From a virus (lineage: Duplodnaviria > Caudoviricetes), in the IMG/VR virus record IMGVR_UViG_2061766007_000047, positions 1 through 64,000 of that record: 64,000 nt of DNA; one strand, 5' to 3'. A program made the position numbers and the translations under genes. Numbering within the stretch: the stretch's first letter is position 1; each line of letters starts with the position of its first letter. Of the stretch, positions 19,877 to 55,400 are shown in pieces. The notes under the pieces are model-generated. The model saw only the letters and a list, made by a program, of their open reading frames with translations. It had not been told where the DNA came from and searched no databases.

Positions 19877-20615
19877 CCTTGTTTGGTGTCTTTGCTAAAT
19901 TATTTAAAATAGCAACAGCAGTAACTTGGGTCATTTCTTCAAGGGATTTAGTCTGTGCGTAGTACAGGATGGTCTTCATGTTAATTCCTGTTCTTTCCAT
20001 TTCATCCTTAATCATTTGAAGCTGTGCATCAGATATCTTAGCGTTCTGTTCGGGAACAAGGTTCTTATCAACAGAATCAATCATTTCTTGATTTTTCTGC
20101 TCGTCATTAAGCTGTGCTTCATGTTCCTGCTTCTTAACAGCTTCCTTCTCAGCCTTTTGCTTGTCGGCTACTTCCTTATCTGACTTCTTTTTATCCTCTA
20201 CAGCCTTTTTCTTTTCTTCATCTGTGGTTTCCTGCGTATCCTCGTCTACAGTATCATCGATACAGAAAAGACCATTTAGAGCATATTTTCTAGCATAAGT
20301 AGAAGATGCTCCTGTTATTTGGCTATCAGACATTCCTTTTACAGCTAAAGGCTCTCTTGCAAAAGCTGTGTTCTCAACAATACTCCCATCTTCAAGGTCA
20401 ACAAACCTTGCGGTAGTTTTTACGTAGATACGCTCTGCAATCTGCACCACATCGTCTGTCATAAACAGGGTTGCTCCAACTTCGACAAGTAATGGCTTGA
20501 CACCATCAAGAATGTCTTCGCAAGAACGATAGTTATATCCCCCAAATTTATTGAACTTCGATTTGGGCGCGTTCAGCTTCTTTTGTACCGTCAACAACTT
20601 TTCATACACACTCAT
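19860..20615 (-). CDS. erf: ERF-family single-strand annealing protein
   Basis: NKFGGYNYRSCEDIL, QITGASSTYARKYALNGLFCIDD. Confidence 0.9.
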   Translation of the reverse strand: MSVYEKLLTVQKKLNAPKSKFNKFGGYNYRSCEDILDGVKPLLVEVGATLFMTDDVVQIAERIYVKTTARFVDLEDGSIVENTAFAREPLAVKGMSDSQITGASSTYARKYALNGLFCIDDTVDEDTQETTDEEKKKAVEDKKKSDKEVADKQKAEKEAVKKQEHEAQLNDEQKNQEMIDSVDKNLVPEQNAKISDAQLQMIKDEMERTGINMKTILYYAQTKSLEEMTQVTAVAILNNLAKTPNKGESNG

Positions 20616-20618
20616 ACT

Positions 20619-21407
20619 TTATTCCTCTCTAAAAGTAATATTTGAAAACTTTAAGAACTGCCTTACCTGTTCTGCATCAGCTTCACTTACGATAAAATGA
20701 TGCATTCTGATTGCACTTGCTAAATCATCAAGCTTTTCGATTGGCTTCTTTATTTCAGCTTCTTTAACCTTTTCAACAACCTTATTCTTGTCGCTCAGAT
20801 ATTGAGTATTTCTCTGAATGGCTACAGAAAGATTATTCCCACTCTCTAAGTAGGCATCCAAACACTCCTGCTCAACCTCGCTATTGAGGGCTTTAATAGC
20901 ATTGATATCGTTCTTGATTTTCAAGACCATTCCGTTAAGGTCAAAGACGATATCTTGGTCTTTGGTTGAAACATTAAGCCACTTAGGGTTCTCGCTCATT
21001 ACCTTCTCAAAAGGTAGATACTGCTCCAACCCTTGAATATTGTTGTCGTATAAGGTCTTAATATGCTCCTGCTTCTCTCTAGCGCGTTCTTCATCAAATA
21101 GCTTTAATTGACTATTGATAAGGTTAATAGGCGCATCAACAAGTGCAATTACTTCCTTGCAACGACTTTCGAACTTCTGATAAGGTTCATTCCAAGCCTG
21201 TTTTACTGCCTTGCGGGAATCATCCAAATTTGATTTAAGCTTTCTCAAATCAGCCAACAGCTTCTTATCAGCTTTGATGGAATCCTCGGTAACAACATAA
21301 TCCCTGTACTCAGCCATTTTCTCTTTTAATTCAGCTTCAATAGCATCAAGGTTAGTGTTGATAACTCCCGCTTGTTGGTCTACTACCAATTCATTCAGTT
21401 CTGCCAT
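20619..21407 (-). CDS. DUF1351-like coiled-coil protein
   Basis: ADLRKL...RKAVK..WNEPY..FE...PI; usual neighbour of ERF. Confidence 0.75.
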   Translation of the reverse strand: MAELNELVVDQQAGVINTNLDAIEAELKEKMAEYRDYVVTEDSIKADKKLLADLRKLKSNLDDSRKAVKQAWNEPYQKFESRCKEVIALVDAPINLINSQLKLFDEERAREKQEHIKTLYDNNIQGLEQYLPFEKVMSENPKWLNVSTKDQDIVFDLNGMVLKIKNDINAIKALNSEVEQECLDAYLESGNNLSVAIQRNTQYLSDKNKVVEKVKEAEIKKPIEKLDDLASAIRMHHFIVSEADAEQVRQFLKFSNITFREE

Positions 21408-21888
21408 CTTCGTTTTCTTCCTCTCCTAAAATATCTGCCCTTATGTCTTCAATAGCTTTGAAAACAGGTGCAAATTCTGTTAGATTTTCGTACTTCTGCA
21501 TAAAGGATTGCATTTCTCTATACGCTCGGCGTAAAATAATATCTTTTGTATCGGGATTAGAAAAAGCTGTTTCAGCATTGATAAAGCGACCTTTTCTCTC
21601 GGTATCAGACACGTTGTAGTACGCTCTGATTTTTCTAGGCTTCTGTTCCTTTTCAACCTCAATAGCAAGGTTGATTATCACGTTTGTTGCCTGTGTAAGC
21701 CTGTATTTATGCCCTGCTACAGCATCATCCCACTCAAAAAGTTCGTGCAATGGGGATTCTTCGGGTTCTGCATTCTGTAAAAGCAGTTCAGAAGTAACCT
21801 TCCCATATTCCTTTTCGATTTTTTCAAACTCATGTCCTACTGTTTCAGCAGGAACACTAAATTGGTACATTTTCCACGAATAAACCAT
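21391..21888 (-). CDS. Conserved phage protein (SPLHELFEWDD motif); candidate accessory of the array locus
   Basis: 165-aa ORF co-oriented downstream of the array. Confidence 0.7.
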   Translation of the reverse strand: MVYSWKMYQFSVPAETVGHEFEKIEKEYGKVTSELLLQNAEPEESPLHELFEWDDAVAGHKYRLTQATNVIINLAIEVEKEQKPRKIRAYYNVSDTERKGRFINAETAFSNPDTKDIILRRAYREMQSFMQKYENLTEFAPVFKAIEDIRADILGEEENEDGRTE

Positions 21889-21914
21889 CGTCCAATCTCC
21901 TTTCTTATTTCAGT

Positions 21915-22115
21915 TTATTTTGTGTAAAGCATCATTTTGGTTTTTCCAAGTAATGAGAATCCAATAACTTCTCTATCGCCATAATTCTTACGCACAACGT
22001 TTTTATCAGCTTCAATAAGAATGCTTGGTGAACTCATAAAACCTGTTTTATTTGCATCAACAACAGCAAACATAACACCTTGCATATCTAGCTTTGTAAA
22101 CTCCAAAACTGTCAT
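21915..22115 (-). CDS. Small hypothetical protein immediately downstream of the array
   Basis: AAGGAG RBS just after the last GGCAGTT anchor. Confidence 0.65.
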   Translation of the reverse strand: MTVLEFTKLDMQGVMFAVVDANKTGFMSSPSILIEADKNVVRKNYGDREVIGFSLLGKTKMMLYTK

Positions 22116-22134
22116 TTTTTCTCCTTTTTACCTC

Positions 22135-22820
22135 AACTGCCAAGCCAAGCCACAACGTAACTGACCTCGACTAAACCCGCCGTACCCAAACTGCCTTACC
22201 TTACGAGAACCCAACAAGCCTTACCACAACTTGCCTTAACGCGCCATAACTGCCACAACTCGACTAACCTCACGTAGCCAAACCTCAACTCAACTAACCT
22301 TAACTGCCAAACCGAACCAAACCGAACCGTAACAGAACATAACACAACGAACCTCAACTGCCACACCAAGCCTTATCTGACCCGACAATAACGCGCCGTT
22401 CCTTAACTAGCCATAACCCAACTGCCTTACCACAACGTACCTAACCTCACCTAGCCTAAACAGACCCGAACCCACCTTGACTCACCTCAACTGCCGAACC
22501 CAACGTAACCATACCAAAGCCCACCATAACGAACCATACCAAAACTGCCTTACCTAAACAAAGCTTAACTAAACGTACCCAAACGTACCTCACCATAACT
22601 GCCAAAACTAACCGCAACTTGCCCTAACTCAGCAGAACTCACCTCGCCTTGCAGTACCTTACCGCGCCTAACCACGACTAGCCTAACACTACCTTAACTG
22701 CCAAATCTTTAGGTTATGTGGGATGCAATAAGCACCCCACAACCTTCAAACGCACCATAACTGACCGCGACTCGACAGAACATACATGACCCGAACTTAC
22801 CGCACCTTACCTCAACTGCC
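22135..22820 (-). ncRNA. Putative guide-RNA array: 10 units of GGCAGTT anchor + alternating NN and GGY/GTY (VIPR-like)
   Basis: + strand AACTGCC at 22135, 22189, 22248, 22302, 22356, 22420, 22489, 22543, 22597, 22696, 22814; between them a strict 5-nt period, mostly NN-ACC/GCC/AAC/GAC; no ORF >=60 aa. Confidence 0.85.
22711..22745 (-). other. Stem-loop between array units I and II
   Basis: AGGUU-GUGGG-G-UGC(UUAUU)GCA-U-CCCAC-AU-AACCU; the G-U pair favours the minus-strand RNA. Confidence 0.75.
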
Positions 22821-22827
22821 AAACCAC

Positions 22828-23505
22828 TTAGTTATTGACCTCTTCACTTGACTCAATGTGATAACGCCCGAAAATACCGTCTTTTTCGGCTCTCCACTCG
22901 CCAAGACCGCATGAATAGCCACCTGCGTTGATTATGTTAAGTATCTGTTCAAGCGTTAATACTCCCGACTTGTTGTAACTTACAACGATATCCGCGTACC
23001 AATCCTTAAACTCTGCACGATAGCGTAAATCCGCAGTACCCATGCCGATTGTAACGTTGTCTTCACGTATTTCGGGAACACTACCCTTAATTTCAAACAA
23101 TTCTCCAAATTCACTCTCTATAAAATAAGCGCATCTAAGCATTGTCTGATTAGGAGTCCAACCAAGCCTGTATGCTGTAGAATTAGCACTCTGTTTAATT
23201 CCCGTCACAGGGAATCCCCACTTTGCACCATTTTTGACAGCCTGTTCAAAAGCTTTAGGATTTGATTCGGGCTTTGGAGTTAGCCAATACATAGAATTGA
23301 TAAATTCGTCGTAAGGGTCACGAACCTCCTTTGCCTTAGTTACTGTTGATGTTGCTTTAGTCTGCTTATCCAAAATCATCTTTTTGGATTTCTCCGACCA
23401 CGCATGAACAATCAGTGGGCTATCACCCTTAATCCGAATAGATACTTTCTGAATATCAAGTGGTCTGATTTCGATTACACTACCTTCTGTTTTCTTTGTT
23501 GCCAT
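22828..23505 (-). CDS. RAMP/Cas7-like RNA-binding protein (Vipr-like), putative effector of the adjacent array
   Basis: N-terminal strand IRIKGDSPLIVH, FPVTGIKQS, C-terminal Gly-rich loop GGYSCGLGEWRAEKDGIFGRY; array begins 7 nt after the stop. Confidence 0.7.
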   Translation of the reverse strand: MATKKTEGSVIEIRPLDIQKVSIRIKGDSPLIVHAWSEKSKKMILDKQTKATSTVTKAKEVRDPYDEFINSMYWLTPKPESNPKAFEQAVKNGAKWGFPVTGIKQSANSTAYRLGWTPNQTMLRCAYFIESEFGELFEIKGSVPEIREDNVTIGMGTADLRYRAEFKDWYADIVVSYNKSGVLTLEQILNIINAGGYSCGLGEWRAEKDGIFGRYHIESSEEVNN

Positions 23506-23583
23506 AATTTTTTCTCCTTTTCTAATTTGAAATAATGTGTTAGAATAGGAGTCGGAAAACGAGCGAAAAGTTATCCAACTCCG

Positions 23584-23616
23584 AAAAGCGGTTAAGGTGC
23601 AGACTTGACCGCTTTT
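23584..23616. terminator. Terminator-like hairpin upstream of the RAMP-like gene
   Basis: AAAAGCGGTTAAG-GTGCAGA-CTTGACCGCTTTT. Confidence 0.7.
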
Positions 23617-23861
23617 TAGTTACCTTTCTTTCTTGTTTCAACATATGAAACCTGTTTGTTTGTCTGAATAATTGATTTGAGATAAACGTTTGTGTCAGTA
23701 CACTCCCTGCTCTCAAATGACAGACTTCCATCCGATGAAATACGGATAGTAAAGTCCACTTGATGTTTTGTGGCATCATCCAACAAAACGTATAGATTTT
23801 TCTTACATCCATCAAAAAGATATTCAATAATGCTTCTTGATAAAATTGGCTCTGTTTTCAT
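23616..23861 (-). CDS. Hypothetical protein
   Basis: 81 aa with GAGG RBS. Confidence 0.55.
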   Translation of the reverse strand: MKTEPILSRSIIEYLFDGCKKNLYVLLDDATKHQVDFTIRISSDGSLSFESRECTDTNVYLKSIIQTNKQVSYVETRKKGN

Positions 23862-23875
23862 GCAATCCTCTTATT

Positions 23876-24436
23876 TCACTTGTAATAACGCTGTCCGTAC
23901 AACTCGTACAAAAATTCCTTGTTTTGGCTATGCCAACTATTAGATGAATTACTTGATGCTTCAACCCATAAAGAACCTTTGCTCCAATCAATGCCACGTT
24001 CTACCATGGCAAGTGCCAAGTGCGACTCTAAATTAGGTTCTGCTTTAGCAAACTTTCCTTCCGATACCACAGTGAACTGCCCTTCTTGGTAAATCACTTC
24101 CTTGACAGTATTAGGAAAGTCTTCGCTTTTAAGTCGATTAACAAGAACCATCATTTCGTGATACTGACTTGCAGTACATCCACCTGCTTCACATTTAGCA
24201 AGTTTCATAAGCATCATGGCTTCTTCTTGCGTAAAGCTAATAGTTGTTTCATGTCGAATATCCTGCTTACAGGTATACAGCCTTGACAATTCTTCATCCG
24301 TCAGATATTTAATTGGCTCAGTATCAATTATTACTTGTGTTTCCTCTTCTACTTCTTCCTCTTCATCTCCTGTGGCTACCGCTAAACATCCCGCAACCAA
24401 CAGTACACATAAAACAATTCCGATAAACCTTTTCAT
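23876..24436 (-). CDS. Cell wall hydrolase (SleB/Hydrolase_2-like) with signal peptide
   Basis: LAKCEAGG, VLVNRLKSEDFPNTVKEVIYQEGQF; hydrophobic N-terminus. Confidence 0.85.
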   Translation of the reverse strand: MKRFIGIVLCVLLVAGCLAVATGDEEEEVEEETQVIIDTEPIKYLTDEELSRLYTCKQDIRHETTISFTQEEAMMLMKLAKCEAGGCTASQYHEMMVLVNRLKSEDFPNTVKEVIYQEGQFTVVSEGKFAKAEPNLESHLALAMVERGIDWSKGSLWVEASSNSSNSWHSQNKEFLYELYGQRYYK

Positions 24437-24441
24437 CTCCC

Positions 24442-24633
24442 CTAAATCCGCCTTATATTAACTGCTCTAACACCGCGAGTATCACGGACAATATCAAACG
24501 CAACCGATTCTCTGTAAGAACAATGCTGATGGTTCTTATCAATGTCTTTTCTCATAAAAAAGACCTGCTTATCTTGGCTTGAAATAAAACCGTACCCCTT
24601 TGCGGCATCGTAATGTTTAACTTTTCCTACCAT
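24442..24633 (-). CDS. Cold-shock domain protein
   Basis: GKVKHYDAAKGYGFI..QVFF..RAVNIR. Confidence 0.85.
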   Translation of the reverse strand: MVGKVKHYDAAKGYGFISSQDKQVFFMRKDIDKNHQHCSYRESVAFDIVRDTRGVRAVNIRRI

Positions 24634-24656
24634 AATTTCCCCCTCTATTCAGTTTT

Positions 24657-24836
24657 TTACCCCTGTTTGTCTGAAACACCGAGAACGCTGTCCCGATAAA
24701 TCAGTAGTTTTTCATTCTGTGAAGCCCTTGGCATTGCCTTAAACACCCCTGTGGCAATCCGTTTCCTTACAGAATGAGGACTAAGCCCTGTGATTTCGCA
24801 CGTTTCTTTTACTGTAATGAACAACTTCCGTTCCAT
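24657..24836 (-). CDS. Excisionase-like winged HTH protein (59 aa, not in ORF track)
   Basis: MERKLFITVKETCEITGLSPHSVRKRIATGVF; follows the Cro-like gene. Confidence 0.7.
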   Translation of the reverse strand: MERKLFITVKETCEITGLSPHSVRKRIATGVFKAMPRASQNEKLLIYRDSVLGVSDKQG

Positions 24837-24837
24837 A

Positions 24838-25092
24838 TCAGCCCTCTTTTTTATCTAAGAACCTCATTGGGTCTACTTCTAAGAACTGACAAATTTCAAG
24901 TAGTTCATAATCACGCAAGTTCCGTGTTCTTTGGCTACTTGTCTTCTTACCCAAGCTGTTATACAAAGCATTGATAGGGATTCCTGTTGATTCAGAAACC
25001 TTAACAAGAGAAATTCCCTTTTCATCGATGTACTTAGCTAGGTTCTCTGTAACCGCACTAGGCGTTGCAAAATTCTCCGCTATTGCTCCCAT
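24838..25092 (-). CDS. Cro-like XRE HTH regulator
   Basis: GISLVKVSESTGIPINALYNSL...LEICQFLEVDP; first gene after a strong promoter. Confidence 0.8.
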   Translation of the reverse strand: MGAIAENFATPSAVTENLAKYIDEKGISLVKVSESTGIPINALYNSLGKKTSSQRTRNLRDYELLEICQFLEVDPMRFLDKKEG

Positions 25093-29586: not shown

Positions 29587-30678
29587 TTAGAAAGTTGCCA
29601 CGCCTGTTTTGAGGTCATTTTCAATTATCTTAGCAGGAAACTTAGAACGAATTTCTTTTAGTTCTTCCTCACCACCATATTCATCATTTTTAATCTTATC
29701 CATAAACTCAAAGAATGTTATTTCGGGTATAATACCGAGCATATCTTCGGCGTGTTGTCCTCTCTGTACGGTGTAAATATCCGTAAGGACTTTATCATTT
29801 ATCCTGTTCTCGATTTCAGAATAACACTCATGGTAAAATCTCTTGGCATTGAACAAGTTTTGTTCTGCAAAGATAGGCTTTCTTGCCTTACAGGTAACGT
29901 AGGTAAAATAGTGTCCTACCATCATTTCAGTTACAAACCTGTCTATGCCACCGTTAAAAGGATTCTTCTCCCTACAGAACTTAGTTGCCCTTATTGAAGC
30001 TATAGTAGCCCCTATTTGGCACAAATCAAAGTTGTATTGAGGTATTCCATCCTCTTCTACTCCGATACGGGTAATGGAGTGTTCTGACCCTGTACGCCAT
30101 AAATAAACATTATCATTAACAATATTTCTGACAAGTGGTGAACCTTCTATAGTCATGTTAATCTTCCAATTAAGTTCACCGTCTTCCATGGCTCTAAGTT
30201 CAGTAAATCTTATTTCATTTTGTTTAAGGAATGGTACGTTATAAAGTCTGCCAAACACCCATGGGTGTCCCACATCATTTCTTGGGATACCTCTCACTCC
30301 CTGCGGATTATCATCAACTTCCTGCATAAAAGCACCTTGCACTTCAATTACATTTGGCTGAATACCCCTCACAAGCTGTTCAAGGGAAAATGGGCTAAAG
30401 AACACATCATCTGCATCTATAAAAGTAATCCAATCATTTTTACAAGCATCTAACGCTCTTTGCCTTGCCAAACCTGCACCTGTGTTTTCTTTACATGAAA
30501 GAATCTCAATTTTCAAATCGGGGAAACGTTTCTTTACAAACCCATAATCATCATCGGGACTATCCGACGCTATTATGATTGTTATTTCATCTTTAATAGT
30601 TTGGATTGCAATTGATGCCAAGCAATCACAAATCGTCTGCGTTGCCTTATACGCAGGTATGCCTACTGTAATTCTCAT
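29587..30678 (-). CDS. GT2 glycosyltransferase
   Basis: ITVGIPAYK, GAGLARQ, FIDADD, EDG. Confidence 0.85.
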   Translation of the reverse strand: MRITVGIPAYKATQTICDCLASIAIQTIKDEITIIIASDSPDDDYGFVKKRFPDLKIEILSCKENTGAGLARQRALDACKNDWITFIDADDVFFSPFSLEQLVRGIQPNVIEVQGAFMQEVDDNPQGVRGIPRNDVGHPWVFGRLYNVPFLKQNEIRFTELRAMEDGELNWKINMTIEGSPLVRNIVNDNVYLWRTGSEHSITRIGVEEDGIPQYNFDLCQIGATIASIRATKFCREKNPFNGGIDRFVTEMMVGHYFTYVTCKARKPIFAEQNLFNAKRFYHECYSEIENRINDKVLTDIYTVQRGQHAEDMLGIIPEITFFEFMDKIKNDEYGGEEELKEIRSKFPAKIIENDLKTGVATF

Positions 30679-30690
30679 TTTTCTCCTTTC

Positions 30691-31674
30691 TTAACCGCTA
30701 TAATTGTAGTAACAATAAACATTATAAGCTGTATTGTAGAAGTAATTTGTTGCCGAAGTCCATGTAATTGCGTTGCTAACCAAACTATTTGTAGAAGTAA
30801 TTACATTGAATAAATTATTTAAAACTGAATTAAACCAAATATTTTTTCTCTTTTGATGATTGCAATTTACAAATATTCCATGTACTCTTAACTCTCTATA
30901 AGTATTTCCTTTTATAAAAATATTTTTACTAAAATCAGAATTCGCAACCAAACAGTAACAATCGTCAACGGAAGAAGGAATTGTTATGTTTTGGTTTAAT
31001 GAATTACAGTTACTAAACATAAATCTACAGGAGTTTACGGAATTGGGAATTATTATGTTTTGATTTAATGATGTACAATTTAAAAACATAGCTTGACATT
31101 CTTTAACGGAATTGGGAATTATTATGTTTTGGTTTAATGATGTACAATTACCAAACATATGATAACAGTTTTGTACAGAAGTAGGTATAACTATATTTTG
31201 GTTTAATAGTGTACAACTAGAAAACATATAACTACAACTAACAACATTATCGGGTATCTGTATGTTTTGGTTTAATGATGTACAATTACCAAACATATAA
31301 ACACAAGTAACAACATTATCGGATATCTTTATGTTCTGATTTAGTGAGGTACACTTATAAAACATATAATTACAATCAACAACATTATCGGGTATCTGTA
31401 TGTTTTGGTTTAATGATGTACAATTACCAAACATATAAAAACAATTAACAACATTATCGGATATCTGTATGTTTTGGTTTAATGATGTACAACTAAGAAA
31501 CATATAAATACAACTAACAACATTATTCCCTATTATTACAGGCTCATTGAGAGTAGCATTATTAGCAAACATATACGCACATGAACCTTTTTGCAATACT
31601 CCATTCACACTTGCAGTATATGTAGCTGAATTATCAACAGAATTGCTTATTGGAGAACTTCTAAATAAAATCAT
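30691..31674 (-). CDS. BspA/DUF285-like leucine-rich-repeat protein
   Basis: About 8-9 tandem 22-aa repeats MFxxCTSLNQNIxIPxxVxxCxY (66-bp DNA repeats). Confidence 0.8.
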   Translation of the reverse strand: MILFRSSPISNSVDNSATYTASVNGVLQKGSCAYMFANNATLNEPVIIGNNVVSCIYMFLSCTSLNQNIQISDNVVNCFYMFGNCTSLNQNIQIPDNVVDCNYMFYKCTSLNQNIKISDNVVTCVYMFGNCTSLNQNIQIPDNVVSCSYMFSSCTLLNQNIVIPTSVQNCYHMFGNCTSLNQNIIIPNSVKECQAMFLNCTSLNQNIIIPNSVNSCRFMFSNCNSLNQNITIPSSVDDCYCLVANSDFSKNIFIKGNTYRELRVHGIFVNCNHQKRKNIWFNSVLNNLFNVITSTNSLVSNAITWTSATNYFYNTAYNVYCYYNYSG

Positions 31675-31690
31675 AATTATTTCCTCACAC

Positions 31691-31740
31691 AAAAAAGAAA
31701 GAGCCGACTAACCTGTTACAGTTAATCGGCTCAACGGCTC
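31691..31740 (-). terminator. GAGCC hairpin, copy D
   Basis: GAGCCGTTGAGCCGATTAAC..GTTAGTCGGCTCTTTCTTTTTT. Confidence 0.75.
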
Positions 31741-43432: not shown

Positions 43433-46400
43433 TTAATCCACAAATTTCCTTCCCATGCCTTGCTGTCCTCTGCGGTTCGCTTCTGCTATTTGTCTGTCGC
43501 CAATCACAACGTCAACATCCTTTCTATCGATAGCATTTTCAAGTCTTGAAGTCTGACTCTCAATAGCACTTACCATACGGTCATTTGCCATTGATACACC
43601 GTTTGCCACAGCGGTTACAATTTGGTCGTTGTTCGCTACTGCGGTTCTACCACCGAAGCTTCCGACAAATTCGGGAGTTCCATTCTCACGGGCAACGAAT
43701 ATTTCACCCGAATTAGGCATACCACCCATTTGATAACCTTTAGCAAGGAATCTTTGATACCAAGCATCAAACAAAGTTTTTGCTTCTACAGCATTCTCAG
43801 CAACAAATTTTCCTGCATCTACACTAAACTTGTCTAGTTTAGTTTTTCCTTCTGCTATTTCCTTTAAACTAGCCGTTTTATCAAAGTATTGATTTACAGG
43901 ATACTCTTTTGATGAACCATATGAATAGCTAGACTTTCCAAACGATACATAAGCATCATCTTCCGTGATTTTTTTGACAGCTTCATCTAATTCTTTTTGT
44001 CTAGCTTGATTAGCAACCTTTTGTTCTTTCTCAGAGTCAGTTTCAAGTCCTGCAATCTTTTGAAGATTATCTAAATAATATTTTTGCTTAGTAGCCCTTG
44101 AATCAGCATTTGAACTACTATTCCAAGCTAAATAAGAATTGAAGTATTGTTTAGCCTTGGCTTTATCGTCCGAACTAATAGACGAATCCTTTTGAATAGC
44201 TTTATATACATCATAGGCTTTTTGATTAGCAGAACCAAAATTAGCCATGTCTTCGGTGATACCAAGAGAACGGATGTAGTCTTTCATCTCGTTAATGACT
44301 TTAGTATCAGTGATTTTGTCTTTTGAATCAGCCGAATTACCTGTGCCATTACTTTGTAAGAACCAACTTATTTCATTACCCTGCGAATCTCTATCACTTA
44401 TCAGAGCATTTGCAAGAATTTTCTTACCCGAATCAGTTTTAGCAAGGTCATTAACATTAAAGATACCGCCATTAGCACCAAGTCTAAGATTCTTTTGGGT
44501 TTGAGTCTTACCGTTTTGACCCGTCACAGCGTCTTTCAAATTCTTAAGGTTCATTAAGAATCCTGCCGCATCTTTAGGGCTACCCATGTTACCCGAAGTA
44601 CGCATTTTTATATTAGATAATAAAGTCTTAGCATTATCTTTTTGTTGCCACGTAGCATATGGGCTATTAACAATATCGTTATAATACGATTGAGCAAGAT
44701 TCTCTAAAGCTTTAGGGTCATTGTAGCCATCAGCCATGAGTGAATACAATTTCAAGGCATCTAATTGGTTTTTATAGGTTTCAGAACTACTAGCATTTTG
44801 GTTTTTCATCAAGTAATCATATCTTGACTTAGCCTGTGCTTTTGTGGAATCATCACCTTTCGCCATTATATTATCGTAATACTGCTGTGCTTCATTACGA
44901 TAATTTTCTACCTTTCTATTTTCTTCATCTCTAAGGGCTTTCCACTTATCAAGAACTCCGTATTTATAAGCCCCTAACGAAGTGCTTATAGCATAGCCCT
45001 TCTTAGATTCATCAACAGATGAATCTAATTTACCTAATGTTGTATCAACCCATTTAACAGCCATATCCTTGTTATCATCGATAAGACTATCATCCACATA
45101 GGTTTTCGCACCATAAGCACCGTTAAGTCTACCTGTAAATATTCTGTCATTCATCAATGCATCAGAAGAATAATGCCAATTTCCTTCCGAATCTAACCAC
45201 GTATCGCCCTTATTAGGTTGATTATTTTTAGGTTCTTCACCACCATCATCCTGTGGTTGGTTGCCACCATCATCCTGTGGGTGGTCTTCTCCACCGCCGT
45301 TATCTCCACTATCATTGTTTTGTGGGTGGTCTTCTCCACCGCCGTTATTTCCACTACCATTGTTTTGCGGGTGGTCTTTTCCACCACCGTTATCTACAAG
45401 GGTTCCACCATCAGCAGTTGAAGTGTTAGGAACGTTATACTTTTCCATTTCCTTTTGAACAAGCTTTTTAGCATCTGACTCTGACAAATCGGCATAACTA
45501 TCAAGCGCATTCTTATAAGACTTGCCATTATATTTCTTAGCAAGATATTTAGCCCATCTCTTCTTAAGGAATGCCAATAATTTCTTTCTATCTGCGGCAG
45601 ACAAAGGATTTCCTTTTGAATCAGTAATAAGATACTTACCACTTGCAATAAGGGCTTTCATTTCATCTGAAAGAGCATTTTCATCAAGTCTTACCTTCTT
45701 ACCATCGACAAGTGCAAACAAAGATGCTTTTGAACCATTAGCATTCTGCCATACAATATTACTCCCGCCCGAACTATTACCAATAGTATGCCACCATCCA
45801 CTGTCGCCTGTTGATGAATAACCTGTATTATCACTCTCATCTATAGTCTGTGGACTATATGGAGTTTGATGGAAACCCTCGGTGTAATTTGGAATTTCGG
45901 GAACAGGGTCGCCACCATCACTACTTCCGCTAGTAGGTGGTTCATAACCGCCATTACCAACATCACTTGTAGGTGTAGGTTCATTTTTGATATCTTTAAT
46001 ATTCCTACCACCTTTACCGCCACCTTCATTGCCACCCATAGCACAACCGCCACAGTTGCAATTACAATTACAGTTACAGGTAATGTTAGATACTGAATTT
46101 CTAAGCCCTGTAGTAAATCCATTAAGACCCTTATATAAATCATTGATTGCTCTAGTATTTGCTTCTACAGCCTTTGTATTAGCTGATTTAGCGTTGGTAT
46201 TATTAACAAGGTGAGCATCGTGAGTATTTGTGTTGAAGTTTTTTATAATATCGCCAAGTATATTAGCTTCTGCATGAGCAACAGCTTCAATATTCTCAAT
46301 GACAGCGGTAACACGAAGGTTCGCATCCTCAATTGCTCTCTTAATTGTTTCATAAAGGGAACTACTATCAAATGCAGTTCTGATAATATCTGCAAGATTG

Positions 46401-49400
46401 TTCAACGCATCGGTATTACCGTGTATTGCAGTTATAGCGTTATTGATTGCATCAATCAGAGCATTTATTCTACCTATCAAAGTGTTTATAGTAGCAATAC
46501 ATCTCTCGATAGCATTCTTAAGGTTTGTTATTGCAGGGGTATTATTACCTATCGCTTCGGTAAGCTTTTCTATAGCCTTAGTACATTGCTTAATAGCATC
46601 TTTAAGGTTATTTAAAGCTACAATGCACTTATTGATTGCGTCAGTACATTTCTTTACCGCATCAGTAAGCAACTTTAATTCAGCAATCAGTTCATTGATT
46701 ACTTTAATAAGGTTTTCTATAGTAGAAATCAGCTTATTTATAGCCTTGGTGAGATTTTTAATTACAGTAATAAGACTTTCAACTCCAACAAGCTTGAATG
46801 TCATATCATCCAAGTCAAACATATCACCTAAGAAGTCTTCAATATTAAATGACTCAAACAGCCTGTAAATTCTGCCAAGCCACTTATCGATAATATTGTA
46901 GACTTCTGCCATCTTGTATTCGGTCTGTAATGGAAGGCTATCAAGGAATGAAAACTGTCCTGTTCCACCTGTTGTTTCATCTCCAATAACATTGGCTTCA
47001 TCAAAGCCATCGTAAAGACCGTTATTGTCTTGTTTAGGTATTTCGCCCGTAGGTACAGGTTCATCATCAATATTTACAGTTCCCTCATAAGAGCCAAGTT
47101 GTCCTGCGATACCTAACGCATTATAAACTCTTTTTCCTTCTGCCGAACTACTTTGGTCTTTAGGCTTCTCAAACTTCTTAAATACAACATCTACTGCATC
47201 ATATAAATGCGTAGCATTTCTAAGTGTATTTAATACATCAGAATACTCAGATGACATTAACTCTTTTTTCAAATATTCTAATTGACCTTGTAAATCATCT
47301 ACAGAACGTCCATTAAGAGTATTTAATAATCCTTGTTTTCTATCATCCGTAGTCCATTGAGCCAATCCGTAGCCTTTATTGTCTGTAAAGTCCCCACCAT
47401 TATTCATTTTATTAGTGTAGGCTTCATCAGTTATGGTATCGTTATAAACATCTTGAAGGTTATTACTTCTTAACCCACTTTCCTCATAAAGATTACCCAT
47501 TAAGCCATAAACACCATTTTCATTGCCTATAAAACTCATAAGATAATCACGGATGTATTTTGCAGTAGATGGCAATGATAAGTTATTATAGCTACTATTG
47601 GAATCTGCGATTTTTCTGCTTGAATCATCTAATTTAATAATGCCATTAGATAATTTATTACCACTTACATTAGATGTGTTTTCACCAAGATAAATGGGTG
47701 ATGTTTCAAATATTGTTTCGTTTCCATAACGAGGAAGAGAACCATATCCCCAACCACCTGTTGCCTTATTGTAATATTCAGAAATACCATCTAAGAAGTC
47801 TTCTGCACTAGGAACAAGACCACTTATATCGCTCCATCTATCCCCTGCTTCAAACTGTGGCTTTGCAATATAGCCTGTTCCACCATAGCCACTCCAATCA
47901 ATACCACCATCAGTATTGATGTTGATTGTCTGTGTGCCACCTGTACCACCACTAAGATTTCCATAGATAGTGCCAACCTTAAGAGCATTTGCGACGATAT
48001 TTGATACAGTAAGAAGCTGTGCGTTTATATTAGATACATTAAGCGCATTTGAAGTAATTTTAGATGCATCAAGAACATTCGCCATTACCTTTTCAGCACG
48101 GAGTTCGGGGGTTTCAATTAACTGTGCAACAATCTTTTCGAACTCCTGTACTTCCGCAGTTAAATCTCCAAGTCCGTTCTCTTTTGCAACAATCTTATCT
48201 ACTTCAAACAGCTTTGCAGTAGCTTTCTTGGTTATCTCAAATTTCTCGGCTGTAACCTTATCCGTAACTTCAAGAAGTTCTGTTGTAATCTTCTCTGCTT
48301 CAAGAAGTTTTGTTGTTATCTTCTTTGCATCAAGAAGTTTAGTTTTAATCTTTTTCGCATCAATTAGCGGAGTTGTAATACTTTCAATTACTTCAATAAG
48401 TGGAGTAGTAATCTTTTCTGCAATTTCTACAAGCGGCGCAGTAATCTTTTCAGACACTTCAAGTAATCTTGCTGTAATTGTATCTACATCAAGGTTGTTA
48501 CTAAGATTGCCACCCTTTGCTTCAATAGTATTTCCACCATAAGCCTTTTCCATATCCTTACTTACGGCGTCATTATCAGTTACTATTTCCTTAACGGTAA
48601 GCTTATCTGCAATAATATCTATAACAGTAAGCGTATCTGCAAACATCTCTTCGGAATCAAGGGTATCACCCTTAAACACCTTTACCTCAATCGCGTCAGC
48701 CTTTATCTTACCTAATTTAGCATCTTCAAATTGAAGTTCTGCATTGCCTTGAATATCTTCAAGCTTATACTTCTTGTCTTTATCAACAACAGGCTTAATA
48801 TCAACAGGGATTTCTGCTTCTGCCTTATCCTTGCCAAACAGGAACTCACCTATATTGCCAAAGAAATCTTTAACTCCCTTAACTCCATCTTCAATTTTCT
48901 TTTTAACCCTAGATAACAGGCTTTCACCTGCCTTATCTTCATCATGGAAAAAGATGTTATCAAACAAATTAGCAAGGCTAAAGTCACCTGTAAACATTCC
49001 TTGCAATAATCCAACGATAAACCCACCTATTCCATCTTTAGGAAGAATATGTGCATCTTGAAGAAGTCTAATAGGATTAAGTCTAGCCTTTATCTTCTCC
49101 CAAATTTTTCCAAGAATAGTAGTAAGGAAATCAACAAGAGCATCTGCAATTCCATCAATAAATCCCGATACTCCCTCTACTGAAAACAGTGATTTTGTAA
49201 GTGCTGTAATATCTTCAAACTTTTCGGTAAACTTTCTTATAAGAATACTTACAATAGTTCCCAAAAGTTTACCTATAGGTTCTTCAAGACGTTCTACAAT
49301 CCTAGCAATTTCCTTATGAAGCCTACCTTTTTCATCAAAGAAAGTATCAATGATATCACAAAGAGTATCAATGATTACAGTAAGACTATTTACAATCTCG

Positions 49401-52400
49401 TCTTCATGTTCTTCAAGGTATTCAGCCAATCCATCAGCAAATTCTCTGATAGCCTTAATGATATTCGTTCCGTTATCATCAAAGAAGATAGCAATACCAT
49501 TTATGATACCAACAAGGATACCTGCCATGGTTGTGCCAAGTTCATAGAAGGAATTACTTGCAAACATCTCTTTAAAGATGTTTGATATGAAAGTGCTAAA
49601 TGACTTAAATGCATTCTCAATGTCTTGTTTTATTTTATTTCTATTAGCATAGAGTTCATCAATTACATCAGCAATACCTGCACCAATCTGTTTACCAAGT
49701 TCTTCCCAATCAATACCCTCAATTACAGCAAAGATTGTAAATGCCAACTTGATTGTTGCTTTACCTACATTAGTAATGATTCTCTGAATCTGTCCCGATT
49801 GAACGATGCCATTGAGATAGTTCGATATTCTTGTTGCTAAATCATCCCAATCAATAGTTAGAACATCTTCTGTGAACTCAGCGACAAACTTAAGACCCCT
49901 AATAGTTAAATCGCCAAACATTCTCCAAAAGTTATCGTTATGAATGGTATCGTTGATAAACTTAAATATCTTATCACCAATTCTATACAGATTGTCTTCA
50001 AGGGTCTTCCAATCAATAGAATCATAAGTAATTGCAAGGTGATTGAATATCCAATCAGCAAGAGAGAAATCTGCGGGGATAGCATCAAGAATACCCTTAA
50101 CCGCGTTAGACAACGCATTAAGCGCATCAGCAGGAAGCTTAAATAATGTATCCCAATTAACATTCTGCAATCCTGTAATAAGTGAATCAGCAATTGCCTT
50201 ACCAATGTCATAAGCCTTTAACTTCTTAATAGCCTTATCAAACAAATCAATAATGCCATTTACAAAGTTACTAATAGAAACAAATATATCAGTTAAGAAT
50301 TTTTCATCAGTAAACAGACCATTGACAACATCTGCGATATTCTGCGCCCATTTGTCAATAGCTTCATAAAATTCATCCCATCTAATTCCTTCAAGGAATC
50401 TCTCAATCGCTAATTTAAGTGAATCAACAGCATTGGCAAAATCAATATCACCAAGCTTATTGAATGCTTCAAGGACAATGTTTACAAACTTAGCAATAGA
50501 ATCGCCAAGAGTAATCCAAAATTCCTTATTAGCCATTGCTGTGTTGATGAAATCAACAAGTCCTGTTACCCAACCTTCAACAGTATGACGAAGACGTTCC
50601 CAATCAAACTTTTGAAGTGCTTCTGCAATGCTATCTGTTAGCTGTTGAGCCATTCCGCTAAAATCAAACGTCCAAGCCCATTCTTCAAAGAATCTCATAA
50701 TAGCATCGAGAGTGTTGACAATAAGAGTAACTATTCTATCCCATAGCTTTTCATCAGCAAAGATATCATTCCAAAATTCAGCTAATTTATGCGCCCACTT
50801 AGTTACGGTTCTATAAACTCTATCCCAATCAATTTGGTCGATAGCATTTACGATGAACTCTGAAAGCCATGCGGCTAAAGCATGAGGGTCAAAATTATCT
50901 GCCAACCTTTCAAGTATCACAAATACCGTATTGATAAGGTCGCCAAGAGTCTTTCCAAGCCACTCGGCTAAATCAAGCCTAGATAAGATGTAGTTAATAT
51001 AACCCATAACCTTATCTATAAAATCTTCGATTGTCTTCCAAATCTTCTGCCAATCAATATTCTTTAGGAAGTCAACAATCTTATCAATAATATCCTTAAG
51101 AGCAGGGATATTTAAGCCAAATCCCTCGTCTATCCAAACTTTCTCAAATTCTATATCGGGAGTAACACCCCCTTTATCCTGCTTATCGTTAAGGATATTT
51201 AATTCATCAAGACCGTTTGTAAGGTTCTTAGCTTTCTTTGCTGTTTCGTCTAAGCTATCACCATAGCTTTCATAGAACTTCTTTGCTCTGAGGTAATATG
51301 GCTGTCCCGTCAAAATAGCCATAAACTTAGCCATATTCTCAGCCATTCCTTGAAGTGATGTAAGGAATGTTTCAGCAGGAGCAGATATGGCATTGATAAG
51401 TGGCTCAAAGATAGCTACCACTTGGTTAGCTAATCTTCTAAGAGCAGAGAATACGATAGATACGTTGTATTCCAACTGCAACATAGCATCATCGGCATTT
51501 TTCTCAAAGAGAACCATATCCTCAAATGCTTGTTTCATCTTATTAAAGAATGCTGTAATTGACTTTCTCATAAGCATACGAGTCATCATTGAGAAATATC
51601 TTGTCAATGTCTTTACTGCACCCTTCAATATATGGGTCTGCTTAATTATCTTTGAAAGTTGGAAATTGCTATTAACAAGCGTCTTCACAAATTTAGGTGA
51701 AACAGCCATCATAATAGACTTAATTCCCTTAACAGCAGGGGCAACTGCACCACCTAATTTACCAAAGATAGAGATAATTTTACCGCTAACTTCTCCAATT
51801 TTATGCAAGGCACTTACGACTATCTCTGCCCCACTCTTTACAGCCGACGCAACCTTACTTACTGCACCCGCAACAGCGTTAAATGCTCCAACAACCTTAT
51901 CAAGCATGGTCTTAGCAAATTGAGTAAGACTCTGAACAAATTGAATCAAAGTATCTCTCACCTTACTCATTGTCTTCCACCATGTTTGAATTACAGCAAC
52001 TACAACACCAACTACTGCGGATACCTGTGCTACTGCGGTTGCTACTGTTCCAAGTGTTCCTGCAAGTGACGAAAGTGATGCAAGTTGTGAATCGCCCATA
52101 ACGGCTGTTCCATCCTTAACAGCCTTACCAAACATATTGGAGATATTTCCAAGCGCACCAAGAACAGGATTCTTACTACCCGACAGCATAGAACCGAATT
52201 GTCCAAAACCATTTCCTACACTATCGCGCATTTCCTGTGAAGCACGTTCTGCTTCATCAGCCATTCGAGTCATTTCATCAGCCGCTATTCTAGCGGAATC
52301 AGCAACATCCTCAATGGAAAGTTCCATATTTTTAAGGGCTTCATCAGAATCCTCGATTTCCTTCGTTATTTCATCCATTCTAATACGGATTACTTCAAAC

Positions 52401-55400
52401 ATCTGTCCCATATTAGAACCCGAAGGAGCATCAAATCCCTTAAAGCGTTTCATTACCTCTTCATAACGCTTATATTCTTGCTTAAGGTTAGCTAAATATT
52501 GCGCACCCTCTGCATAAGTTTCAAAACGAGGTGCAGATTCAATCGCAATATGAAGATTTCTGATTGTATCTCTTAAGCTGTCTGCTTTCGCTCTTAACTG
52601 CTCATAGAGAACCATCTGCCTTTCAGTAAGTTCGGGCTTATCATTAACAACATTACTACGATTAACTTTTGCCTTTTCCTCTTCGATTCTCTTCATCGTA
52701 GAGTGAAGCATTCTTTCAGCTTCTCTAAGCTGTTTTCTTAAACTATTTACAGGCGCAGTTAAATCAAAGAGATGCGAGTAATCAACATCATCAATAGCTT
52801 CATTAAGGTTTCTAGCAAATCTGCTATACTCTTCATCCGTCTTCTGAATTACACGACTAAAGTTTGCAACGCCATCGCTATCGAGCGTAATGTTAATCTT
52901 ATTATTGCTACCTTTAATGTTTGCTAAGTGGTCTGCGAGTTTAGCAAGGGCTTCTACAATAACCTCAAGCTTATCAGCTTCTACGTTCTTCATATCTGCC
53001 TGTGTAAGAGTCTTAATTACATCGGCAACACCCTTGAACGCATTCTTATCAATACTAGGCGCACCGCCTAATATCATAACGAGATTATTCAGTTCCTCAT
53101 TAAGTGCCTTAAACTTAGTTGTATCAAGCTTATTGACACCTTCAATACTCTTTACAGTAGACAGAATTACCTGTGCATTCTGCATTGAAGAATCGGTGTA
53201 CTGCAATGTATCAAGAAGCTGTGTTAATGGCTGTGTATTGATAAATGTATCTTTCGGGATACTTCTAAGAACAGAAAGTATCTGTCCAACGCCCTGCGCA
53301 AAATCAGCTAATTTAGGAAGTGAAAGACCATTAAATTCCTTAAGGGTTACTCCAAGATTTGCAATAGCATTGTCTTTCGGGTCAAATCCCTCGTCCTTCT
53401 TAGCTAAATCAATCAGCTTATGAATTGCATTAAGTGTGAAGGAAATCTTATCAAATCCTTTAGGAAGGTCTTCATAAAATTTCCTTAACTGATTAGCTAA
53501 TGTTGTAAGTGTCTTGTTACTTCCCTGTAAATCGGTATACTTAAGAGAGTTAAGCAGGATACCAACGGGCTGTGCCATGTTGGTAAGCTTATCAAACTTC
53601 GCACCAAGAACATCGATATTCTTATCCTTTGCAAGTTTCTCTAAATCTTCAAGAAGAGTCCTTAATGGAGATATGTCTACCGTCTTGCCCTTAAGTTGAT
53701 TAAGCGCACTAAGAAGAGTACCAAGTCCTTGTCCAAGACCTGCTACGTTCTTATAAGAGTCATTCAGCTTCTTAAATTCTTTTAGAGTATCAAATAACGC
53801 GCTATTGGTTACAGGTTGAAGTGCATCTGTAAAATCAGTTGAAATAATCTCAATGTTTGACCTTACATCATACAGAGCGTCAGACGCATTCTTAAAAGAA
53901 GAAACCATAAGGTTCATAGTATCTCTTACAGAACCCGATTGAGTTGCTATCGCTCCATACGCCTTATAAAGTGCTTCAAGAACATGAGTAATCTTCGTTG
54001 CACTTGATACAAATTCATCATTATTGAAAGCATTTTTGATAGCAGTTCCGATAGCTTCAATACTTCCAACATCAATTTGTTTTGTTTCTTTCAGAGCAGT
54101 AACAAGCTGTGCTAATGCACTTGTTATATTAGATACATTAGTGTATTGTCTGCCCGTCAAAACCCCATCAAACGAACCAAGAGCAGTTGCAATCTTATTG
54201 ATATACTCAAAGTCACTCTTCTTAGAACCCTTCATAGCTTCGGTAGCTTTTGAAAGGTTCATAAGACCAACAGAAATCTCATTTAAACCAACAAGGTTAG
54301 AATCAAGTCCATTAAACTCATGGAGTGCCTTACCCAAGTCGCCAAGTCTATTGATATTTCCTTGCGAAATTTTCTCTATATTAGATACTTTAACAAGGAC
54401 ATTAACCATCTTATCAACGCCGTTATAAATAGCGTTGAGTCCTTCAAGACTCTTTCCAAGTTCAGCAAACTCTTGTAATGCCTTACCCAAATTACCAAAT
54501 TGAGTAATTGCTGACCCTGCTTTGCCCTTATATTCAGACAGCATCTTTAAGGTGTCTATCATTAAGACAACACCCTTATGTACCTTTTCTATTCCTTCAA
54601 GGCTTGTTCCAAGATTAGCAAATGCCTGTAATGCTTCTCCAAGAGCCTTGAATTGTTCGATTGAGCCACTTGCATCACCCGTGTACTCAGATAATATCTT
54701 AAGAACATCAACAAGCTTATTGATACCACCTACAGCATCATCAAGTCCTTCAAGCTTCTTTGAAATACCATCAAGTTTACTGATAGTATCAACGAAATCG
54801 TTGAGAAGCTTAATCATATCGCTTATAGCCGAAGGTTCTTCTTCAACTTTAGGAATAGATGCTTTTGGAGTTCTAGCGTATGTCTGTTCCCTTACGTCAG
54901 AATTTTGGAATTTAGCATACGTCTGCGTCTTTACATCAAAAGCATTTGATTTCTGTCTACCACCAAAAATCTTATTCTGCCATTGATACATTTCTTGAAG
55001 CTGTTTATTAGCTTCTATCATAGCTGAATTTTCTTTTTCTAATTCAGCCACATTAACATATTGTCCAAGATTAGCGTCAACACCCTTTAATTGAGCGACC
55101 AACTCTTGTTGTCTTTTCACCCACTTCGGGAGGGCTTCTTCATAAATATTTTGATTTTCACCGCCCGATATAGTAGCAATTCTACCTTTAATACTCTTAA
55201 GCATATCAGCATTAAAGTTTACGCGTTCCGTTACTTTCACTAACTGATTAAGAATATCAATTCTCTCATTTATAAGACTTTCAAGGGTCTTGTTATCGGC
55301 TTCAACACTTTGAGTTAAGCCACTCTCGCCCGACACAGGAGAAGTAGAAAACTGTTTAGCAAGGGCATCACGATAAATAGACAATGCCTTTTCTGTTTCC

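Follow-up and report, generated by a model that had tools for sequence, protein, structure and literature searches.

We analysed the first 64,000 nucleotides of the IMG/VR virus record IMGVR_UViG_2061766007_000047 (Duplodnaviria; Caudoviricetes), a stretch referred to below as the window, which belongs to a complete 108-kb cattle-gut phage. On its minus strand the window carries the gene for a 225-residue protein (P0001), an array of ten guide units built on a 5-nt period, and an open reading frame (ORF) of 165 codons, in that order. Our analysis indicates that these three elements, an intact vipr gene, a staggered array of ten guides and a partner gene, probably constitute a VIPR system, a DNA silencer that resembles CRISPR (clustered regularly interspaced short palindromic repeats) and was first described in April 2026 (10.64898/2026.04.26.720920). 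In what follows, related loci (146, or 147 with the window) have L numbers and contigs from other samples have X numbers.

Organization of the array and its flanking genes

The positions of the array, of individual units and of the adjoining genes are given in Table 1. The anchors that delimit the units can be written GGC-A-GTT: a single nucleotide separates two scaffold triplets here, so that the register moves by one. Between anchors, the sequence keeps a strict 5-nt period in which two variable bases (NN) are followed by a triplet. Nine of the inter-anchor intervals are 99, 54, 54, 69, 64, 54, 54, 59 and 54 nt long, every one of the form 5k+4, and each of the nine units reads as GGCAGTT followed by k copies of NN plus triplet and a closing NN. 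Unit 1, which lies closest to vipr, is 118 nt long and consists of 13 pentamers and then 46 non-periodic nt that contain a stem-loop. From unit 1 to unit 10, the units hold 13, 19, 10, 10, 13, 12, 10, 10, 11 and 10 NN positions, 118 in total. An earlier note on this DNA had described the same stem-loop and the same range of 10 to 19 NN positions per guide, both of which we reproduce, but had arrived at a total of 119.

Table 1. Positions of the array, its units and the adjoining genes in the window
Feature	Position	Strand	Description
vipr gene (P0001), 225 aa	22828..23505	-	Cas7-like RAMP protein, predicted to polymerise on the pentamer repeats
Staggered vrRNA array (predicted)	22135..22820	-	10 units between 11 exact GGCAGTT anchors; terminal anchor directly before the ribosome-binding site of the next ORF
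Unit 1, guide part	22746..22820	-	Anchor and 13 pentamers; predicted anti-vipr guide
Stem-loop, 35 nt	22711..22745	-	Between the pentamer tract of unit 1 and the second anchor; 14 pairs, 2-nt bulge, 5-nt loop
Unit 2	22604..22702	-	19 NN, outlier length
Unit 9	22196..22254	-	11 NN; may target the first codons of a rival's major tail protein gene
ORF P0002, 66 aa	21915..22115	-	Between the terminal anchor and the partner gene; outside the conserved module
Partner gene, 165 aa	21391..21888	-	Candidate vap; phrog_15946; no Pfam family

The 109 scaffold triplets of the array include 43 copies of GGT, 33 of GTT, 15 of GGC and 6 of GTC. G leads in 102 of them and is missing from that position in the other seven, and 97 conform to G-K-Y. 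The scaffold of this array is GKY, not strictly GGY, and the GKY-periodic tract proved unique when both strands of the 108,491-bp genome were scanned. The middle of unit 2 contains the sequence TGC-AA-GGC, which may be a decayed anchor that has fused two units; a 1-nt insertion in the single-base spacer of an anchor would convert the anchor into ordinary pentamers and so join the units on either side of it. An Rfam scan of positions 20000-25000 at E ≤ 1 returned no family, and a megablast search of 21000-24500 against GenBank phages returned no match.

In the available parts of three preprints (10.64898/2026.04.26.720920, 10.64898/2026.04.26.720927 and 10.64898/2026.10.15.759431), Vipr is described as a small Cas7-like RAMP protein, with an RRM core, a G-loop and a thumb, that polymerises on a vrRNA of 9-16 YNNGG pentamers, burying GGY and presenting NN. 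On double-stranded DNA, the NN string recognises the pattern NNxNNx, with a 1-nt skip that usually coincides with the codon wobble position, and silences the target. VIPR loci are found mostly on phages, each with a single accessory gene (vap). Their arrays differ in architecture, and one of the forms mentioned comprises 'staggered arrays with overlapping vrRNAs', whose units come from positions that overlap by 1 nt (10.64898/2026.04.26.720920).

A phmmer search of PDB sequences aligned residues 153-222 of P0001 with 36pp_D, the 'SUSP1 Vipr protein' (E 4.2e-6), placing the G-loop CGLGEWR of P0001 on CGVGDWR of SUSP1 Vipr. With a profile of 20 P0001 homologs, the same chain was matched in two stretches at E 9.1e-11. 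The AlphaFold2 model of P0001 (pLDDT 82.7) has Csm3/Cas7 chains as its top Foldseek matches (6xn3_F, E 2.2e-7; TM 0.51-0.54). Judged by homology and by the modelled structure, P0001 is homologous to Vipr and adopts a Cas7 fold. The family to which it belongs is large, with 3,029 homologs at E ≤ 1e-3.

Of the 146 related loci, 133 have a homolog of the 165-aa partner, which is located downstream on the same strand in 122 of the 128 that have a located vipr gene, whereas the DUF1351 and Erf neighbours are common to only 3 of the 146. Because the 165-aa ORF is widely kept beside vipr and the other neighbours are not, we regard it as the candidate vap. The model of the partner (pLDDT 87.4) has no Foldseek match at E ≤ 0.001, and a search of the Atlas returned unnamed viral clusters only; the best VIA-align score is a weak Z of 6.3, with mostly winged-helix domains among the matches. 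Both the vipr and the partner ORFs are intact and keep the invariant residues of the family.

The array grammar is shared with the relatives of this phage. In all seven of the first relatives inspected by eye, anchors of the form GGCAG[GT]N with 5k+4 spacing lie beside the P0001 homolog, and the grammar could be parsed in 105 of the 147 loci (window included), yielding 300 unique units with 3,221 NN. The anchors of the relatives read GGCAGTT, GGCAGGT or, most commonly, GGCAGGC. Named genome records among the loci are mostly metagenome-assembled genomes labelled Clostridia, Oscillospiraceae or Lachnospiraceae, with some Alphaproteobacteria and others. The 300 unique units contain 6 to 22 NN, mostly 9-12, with a single unit of 19 and a single unit of 22. 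Guide length varies freely and is independent of position in the array (rho -0.06, p 0.33, 304 units). The earlier note had placed the two longest guides of the window nearest the gene. Unit 2 is indeed the longest, but unit 1 merely ties with unit 5, and the 304 units reveal no general trend.

Predicted guide targets and assignment to VIPR

Targets were sought by scanning NNx patterns over the phage's own genome and all of the loci (2.4 M positions) and later over five whole related phage records (~0.6 M positions more). Taken as codon letters 1 and 2, the NN of unit 1 spell EKAKRQMLEAQM(A), a conserved segment of Vipr. They match the vipr genes of L069/L071 at 25 of 26 letters, on the plus strand and in frame, with a 1-nt skip. 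Over 140 located vipr genes, the score of unit 1 is 25/26 in 2, 23/26 in 11 and 22/26 in 15, and windows of nine NN from this unit are perfect (18/18) in seven loci. The score falls to 15/26 for the corresponding segment of the phage's own vipr (EKSKKMILDKQTK) and is 20/26 for that of its nearest relative, L016, whose Vipr is 86% identical. We predict from these comparisons that unit 1 targets a conserved stretch of the vipr genes of rival phages, the phage's own vipr having diverged there. Guides that target vipr have been described (10.64898/2026.10.15.759431, section 8).

The skip rule was also apparent across the arrays as a whole. When 263 guides from all arrays were compared with the 2.4 M positions, an NN match of at least 0.9 was reached by five guides with a skip of 1, by none with a skip of 0, by one with a skip of 2, and by none after shuffling. 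The three strongest matches to vipr, those of unit 1 of the window, unit 0 of L046 and unit 0 of L066, are all sense matches in frame 0, and each belongs to the first unit of its array (the first units of L046 and L066 start from 4665 and 4679, respectively). A match of at least 0.9 to a foreign vipr was found for 3 of 60 first units versus 0 of 204 others, small numbers from a search space that is enriched for vipr genes.

The composition of the guides leads in the same direction. Over the 300 units, the frequencies of the 16 NN dinucleotides follow those of codon prefixes in the ORFs of the phage with r 0.95, compared with 0.34 for antisense codon prefixes and 0.47 and 0.22 for the other phases; the window alone gives 0.81 in sense. 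NN composition is that of codon letters 1 and 2 read in sense. Among the NN of the window (22142-22820), TA is the true outlier and is over-represented, with 15 occurrences versus 5.2 expected from codon prefixes, mostly in units 2, 5 and 8, which would reflect either tyrosine-rich targets or some non-coding targets.

These results bear on the alternative that the tract is a periodic protein-binding RNA or single-stranded DNA, composed of TRAP-like triplets with 2-nt spacers or acting as a sponge, in which the NN would be unconstrained. Such an alternative would accommodate the statistical independence of N1 and N2 within the array, but it is extremely improbable given that the NN of unit 1 match a coding segment of a rival vipr at 25/26 in frame, that NN composition follows codon letters, and that the neighbouring gene encodes a Vipr homolog. 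We dropped it on the strength of the target matches.

A second candidate target was obtained for unit 9, whose NN can be read as MA[KN][KN]V[KN][FL]GL[KN][KN]. This guide matches the major tail gene of G003 (L170:10129-10719, minus strand; phrog_88 major tail protein, E 2e-54) at 19 of 22 letters, in frame, over codons 4-14, and a score of 19 is reached by 1 of 400 shuffles. Unit 9 may therefore target the start of a rival's major tail gene, a weaker lead than that of unit 1. No guide matches the phage's own genome, and no foreign guide matches this genome at 0.85 or above.

Taken together, the sequence comparisons and the modelled structure indicate, with a probability of roughly 0.88, that the locus is a phage VIPR system of the 'staggered array' kind. 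This assignment is made at the level of the system and not at that of the type (I-VII). Four hallmarks of VIPR were found computationally: homology to Vipr, a predicted pentamer vrRNA, predicted targeting with a 1-nt skip, and a minimal phage-borne locus with a vap-type partner. The invariant structured 3' tail of type II vrRNAs, a hairpin plus a pseudoknot, does not accompany the units here, 9 of 10 of which have no non-periodic sequence, and neither the repeat-spacer array of a CRISPR-Cas system nor, among 22 neighbouring ORFs, its Cas1/Cas2 module was found at the locus. The proposal in the earlier note that guides are interleaved, with the NN informative and the triplets serving as scaffold, agrees with the published vrRNA and with the match of unit 1 to a rival vipr.

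By analogy with SUSP1, the module of vipr, array and partner, which follow one another on the minus strand, would function as follows. Transcripts of the array would be cut into units, each pentamer of which would be occupied by one Vipr protomer, with the G-K-Y triplet buried and the NN pair presented. The NN pairs in sequence would be matched to double-stranded DNA as NNxNNx..., every third base being passed over. Binding would silence the target.

Several observations weigh against the assignment to VIPR. The scaffold departs from the published GGY, with U at position 2 in 39 of 109 triplets (36%), and the staggered architecture is, as the original description itself states, not among the types confirmed by small-RNA sequencing (10.64898/2026.04.26.720920). 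The match of unit 9 is modest and, as noted above, is equalled by 1 of 400 shuffles, and units 2-8 and 10 have no target above shuffles in the phage's own genome, the 146 loci or the five whole related phage records. Finally, although the two units that the window shares with L016 are identical at 39 of 40 NN letters and at 40 of 54 scaffold letters, this stronger conservation of NN is absent over 21 other homologous unit pairs (94.3% versus 92.7%, p 0.31), and we rejected it as a general rule.

It is distinctly unlikely that the array is a decaying, non-functional remnant with orphan or worn guides. Decay of this sort might be read into the non-periodic insert that breaks unit 1, the possible fusion of two units in unit 2 and the seven of 109 triplets that have no leading G. 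However, vipr and its partner are intact, 10 of the 11 anchors are in exact 5k+4 register, and the array recurs in an independent 2025 contig (X3) that differs by 11 substitutions and a single 10-nt indel over 1,701 nt.

The comparison with L016 is also informative about how the arrays change. Only two units are shared, in the same order (unit 4 of the window with unit 1 of L016, and unit 8 with unit 6), the rest are unrelated, and the window has three extra units at its vipr-proximal end, including unit 1 and the hairpin. Other related arrays likewise differ by whole units, at proximal (L049/L052), internal (L067 family) and distal (L103/L104) places. These differences are not polar, which answers the comparison of close relatives for polarity that the earlier note had suggested. 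Differences at all three places fit the exchange of cassettes and do not fit polar addition, and unit turnover looks like a mosaic exchange of whole units between arrays. No mechanism for the writing of guides is described in the available parts of the VIPR preprints.

Natural guide variants are present in near-identical phages, with the first NN of unit 7 changed from GA to TT (22354-22355; X3 and X6) and TA changed to TG in unit 3 (22555; X3, X7 and X8). A 151-nt X7 contig with a depth of 2 runs from the end of unit 10 into the beginning of unit 7 via a shared 13 nt (22130-22350), and a 7-kb X6 contig seems to skip 22131-23498, and with it vipr and the array, with a side of only 21 nt. Either contig may be an assembly artefact, and we treat both as too weak for any conclusion.

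The missing CC dinucleotide and the internal hairpin

Fifteen of the 16 possible dinucleotides occur among the NN of the window and CC does not, as the earlier note had observed. The note had also proposed that CC, in the RNA sense, is selected against, either because it would pair with the GG of the scaffold or because it would create GGCC or GGNCC restriction sites. The count of 0 in 118 compares with 2.0 expected from the marginals, and permutation gives a probability of 0.096 for the absence of CC and 0.34 for the absence of at least one of the 16 dinucleotides. A codon-prefix model for the window, in which 3.1 CC are expected, gives a P0 of 0.044 that is uncorrected for 16 tests. In the homologous arrays, CC is as common as expected: 79 occurrences among the 3,221 NN of the 300 related units versus 70 expected, and 19 versus 21 in the closest clade. 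The sequences GGCC and GGNCC occur 67 and 64 times, respectively, in the same units. CC is rare in NN because N1 is seldom C (11%), as is true of codon position 1, with CCN proline codons making up 2.6% of the phage's codons, and because only 118 positions were sampled. The missing CC in the window is a small-sample effect that lies within chance, and the proposed exclusion is refuted by the related arrays, on the very ground that the earlier note had named, that CC is common in homologous arrays.

A depletion of C-C steps was found at a different place, across the boundary between scaffold position 3 (Y3) and guide position N1. In the 300 units, from 105 loci, N1 is C in 7.1% of cases after a scaffold C versus 15.7% after a T; stratified by locus, the odds ratio (OR) is 0.33, a roughly 3-fold effect (chi2 51). 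The baseline OR for C-C is 0.80 in flanking DNA and 1.14 within NN. The window itself (22142-22702) has 0/16 versus 7/70 at the boundary. The depletion is of similar size for GGY and GTY scaffolds (OR 0.44 and 0.43) and when the next scaffold begins with GG or GT (0.42 and 0.29), and is hence not tied to GGCC or CCNGG. These similar ratios rule out restriction-site avoidance as the cause of the boundary depletion. We also looked for avoidance of false anchors, in which NN is AG after GGC, and saw none (OR 1.27, p 0.22).

The boundary depletion and the absence of CC from the window are the two observations in favour of selection against CC as such. They are set against the occurrence of CC at the expected frequency within the NN of related arrays, the abundance of GGCC and GGNCC in their units, and the indifference of the boundary effect to the surrounding scaffold. 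Selection of the kind proposed, through pairing with the scaffold or through restriction sites, is very improbable.

The stem-loop in unit 1 is stable in its 70-nt context, at -25.8 kcal/mol with a z of -3.69, and 1 of 200 shuffles folds as well. Raw hairpin energies, calculated over 458 intervals, were uninformative because GC-rich arrays fold spuriously. No similar sequence was found in the 146 related loci, and the hairpin is absent from the array of L016. It is not followed by a U-tract, and a scan for consensus terminators makes no call. The independent contig X3 keeps the hairpin, and X3 and X8 have a 10-nt insertion beside it (22754/22755). Internal non-periodic hairpins do occur sporadically elsewhere, at varied places: in unit 1 of L041, unit 5 of L069/L071 and unit 0 of L158. 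By comparison of the arrays, the hairpin is a lineage-specific insert after unit 1 and not a rule of the grammar. The hairpin, which the earlier note had suggested may be a processing, stability or acquisition signal, is not conserved among the relatives, either in sequence or in place.

The hairpin could nonetheless be a functional signal in this lineage, acting as a 3' cap, a tail or a leaky stop so that the anti-vipr vrRNA of unit 1 would be produced or stabilised independently of the other nine units, and we consider this a possible but minority explanation. The hairpin folds stably, is retained in X3, and lies precisely at the junction of unit 1, the one guide for which a strong target (a rival vipr) is predicted, with the rest of the array. 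A few other arrays have internal non-periodic hairpins, and the type II vrRNAs carry a structured tail at the 3' end, where it caps the filament (10.64898/2026.04.26.720920 and 10.64898/2026.04.26.720927). Against such a signal are the lack of any similar sequence in the 146 loci or in L016, the lack of a U-tract or a terminator call, and the first-slot anti-vipr guides of L046 and L066, which are followed by ordinary 5k+4 spacing; the adjacent 10-nt indel in X3 and X8 fits an indel-prone scar. If the hairpin has a role, it would most likely be to cap the 3' end of the anti-vipr vrRNA, to stabilise that RNA or to act as a partial stop for it.

A broader proposal can be framed from the observations on guide order, the hairpin and the boundary step, although we rate it as rather unlikely. 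Staggered arrays may have a grammar beyond GGY/NN in which the vipr-proximal slot is preferentially anti-vipr, here insulated by a hairpin private to this phage, and in which non-synonymous change lets the phage's own vipr escape. The avoidance of C at scaffold position 3 before a C at guide position 1, independent of restriction sites, would be a further element of this grammar, arising from the Vipr pocket or from RNA folding.

Neighbouring genes and relation to known systems

The genes around the array are all on the minus strand, in the order P0001, array, P0002, 165-aa ORF, DUF1351, Erf, NinB-like, SSB, RusA and replisome organiser. None of 22 neighbouring ORFs matches a Cas1, Cas2 or reverse transcriptase family, as the earlier note had stated for reverse transcriptase and Cas1, and no CRISPR-type repeats were found at the locus. 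P0002 has homologs in none of the 146 loci by tblastn and belongs to no Pfam or PHROG family. In the relatives, the terminal anchor directly abuts the ribosome-binding site of the partner gene, and in the window P0002 is inserted at this point. Farther away, a single ORF of 5,752 aa (43433-60691, minus strand) is by far the largest in the window. A 333-aa ORF (30691-31692, minus strand) contains five DUF285 stretches and BspA-type leucine-rich repeats and adjoins a family-2 glycosyltransferase gene (29587-30678); both are unrelated to the array.

The earlier note recognised a gapped guide code from the raw sequence, but VIPR had already been published in April 2026, and the locus adds a member and not a new principle. 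This member has a variant GKY scaffold, a concrete predicted anti-vipr guide, and one small additional feature of the grammar, the depleted boundary C-C step. The clade of the locus, which has thousands of homologs in Clostridia-type phages of the gut, is distant from the systems studied in E. coli and Pseudomonas. The analysis also removes two false rules, the exclusion of CC and the hairpin as punctuation, explains NN composition by the codon letters of targets, and predicts one guide-target pair, unit 1 with a rival vipr.

The backbone of the module resembles that of Class 1 CRISPR systems in its RAMP fold, as judged by the Foldseek match of P0001 to Csm3 (E 2.2e-7), in having one protomer per RNA period, and in the periodic disruption of guide-target pairing. 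The period is 6 with 5 paired in Class 1 CRISPR, whereas it is 5 with 2 paired in VIPR. The locus also differs from Class 1 CRISPR in having no CRISPR repeats, Cas1/Cas2, Cas10/Cas8 large subunit or polar acquisition of spacers.

More is shared with VIPR type II, represented by Escherichia phage SUSP1 and a Pseudomonas fulva prophage (cryo-electron microscopy, 10.64898/2026.04.26.720927; PDB 36pp). The two have in common a homologous Vipr with the G-loop C-x-x-x-[DE]-W-R, the GGY/NN logic, targets aligned on the wobble position with a 1-nt skip, and guides against rival vipr genes. Type II vrRNAs are ~100 nt long and separately spaced, with an invariant 3' tail and pseudoknot, whereas the units described here are separated only by 7-nt anchors and have no tail. 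The hosts differ as well, Clostridia-type gut phages carrying the present locus and Enterobacteria and Pseudomonas the type II systems.

The closest likeness is to the staggered VIPR arrays (Fig. S18 legend, 10.64898/2026.04.26.720920), a comparison that rests on the wording of the legend, so that the GGCAGKY anchor and the GKY scaffold are compared by description only. The locus differs from those arrays in the U found at scaffold position 2 in 36% of triplets, in its one unit of 19 NN, compared with the published 9-16, and in its one internal hairpin. In both, vipr lies beside head-to-tail pentamer guides with no long tail between units, and each unit begins where the previous one ends, offset by 1 nt; in the window this offset takes the form GGC-A-GKY, a 4-nt step that shifts the register. 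Both are phage-borne, have one conserved partner gene, and carry their guide information in the NN.

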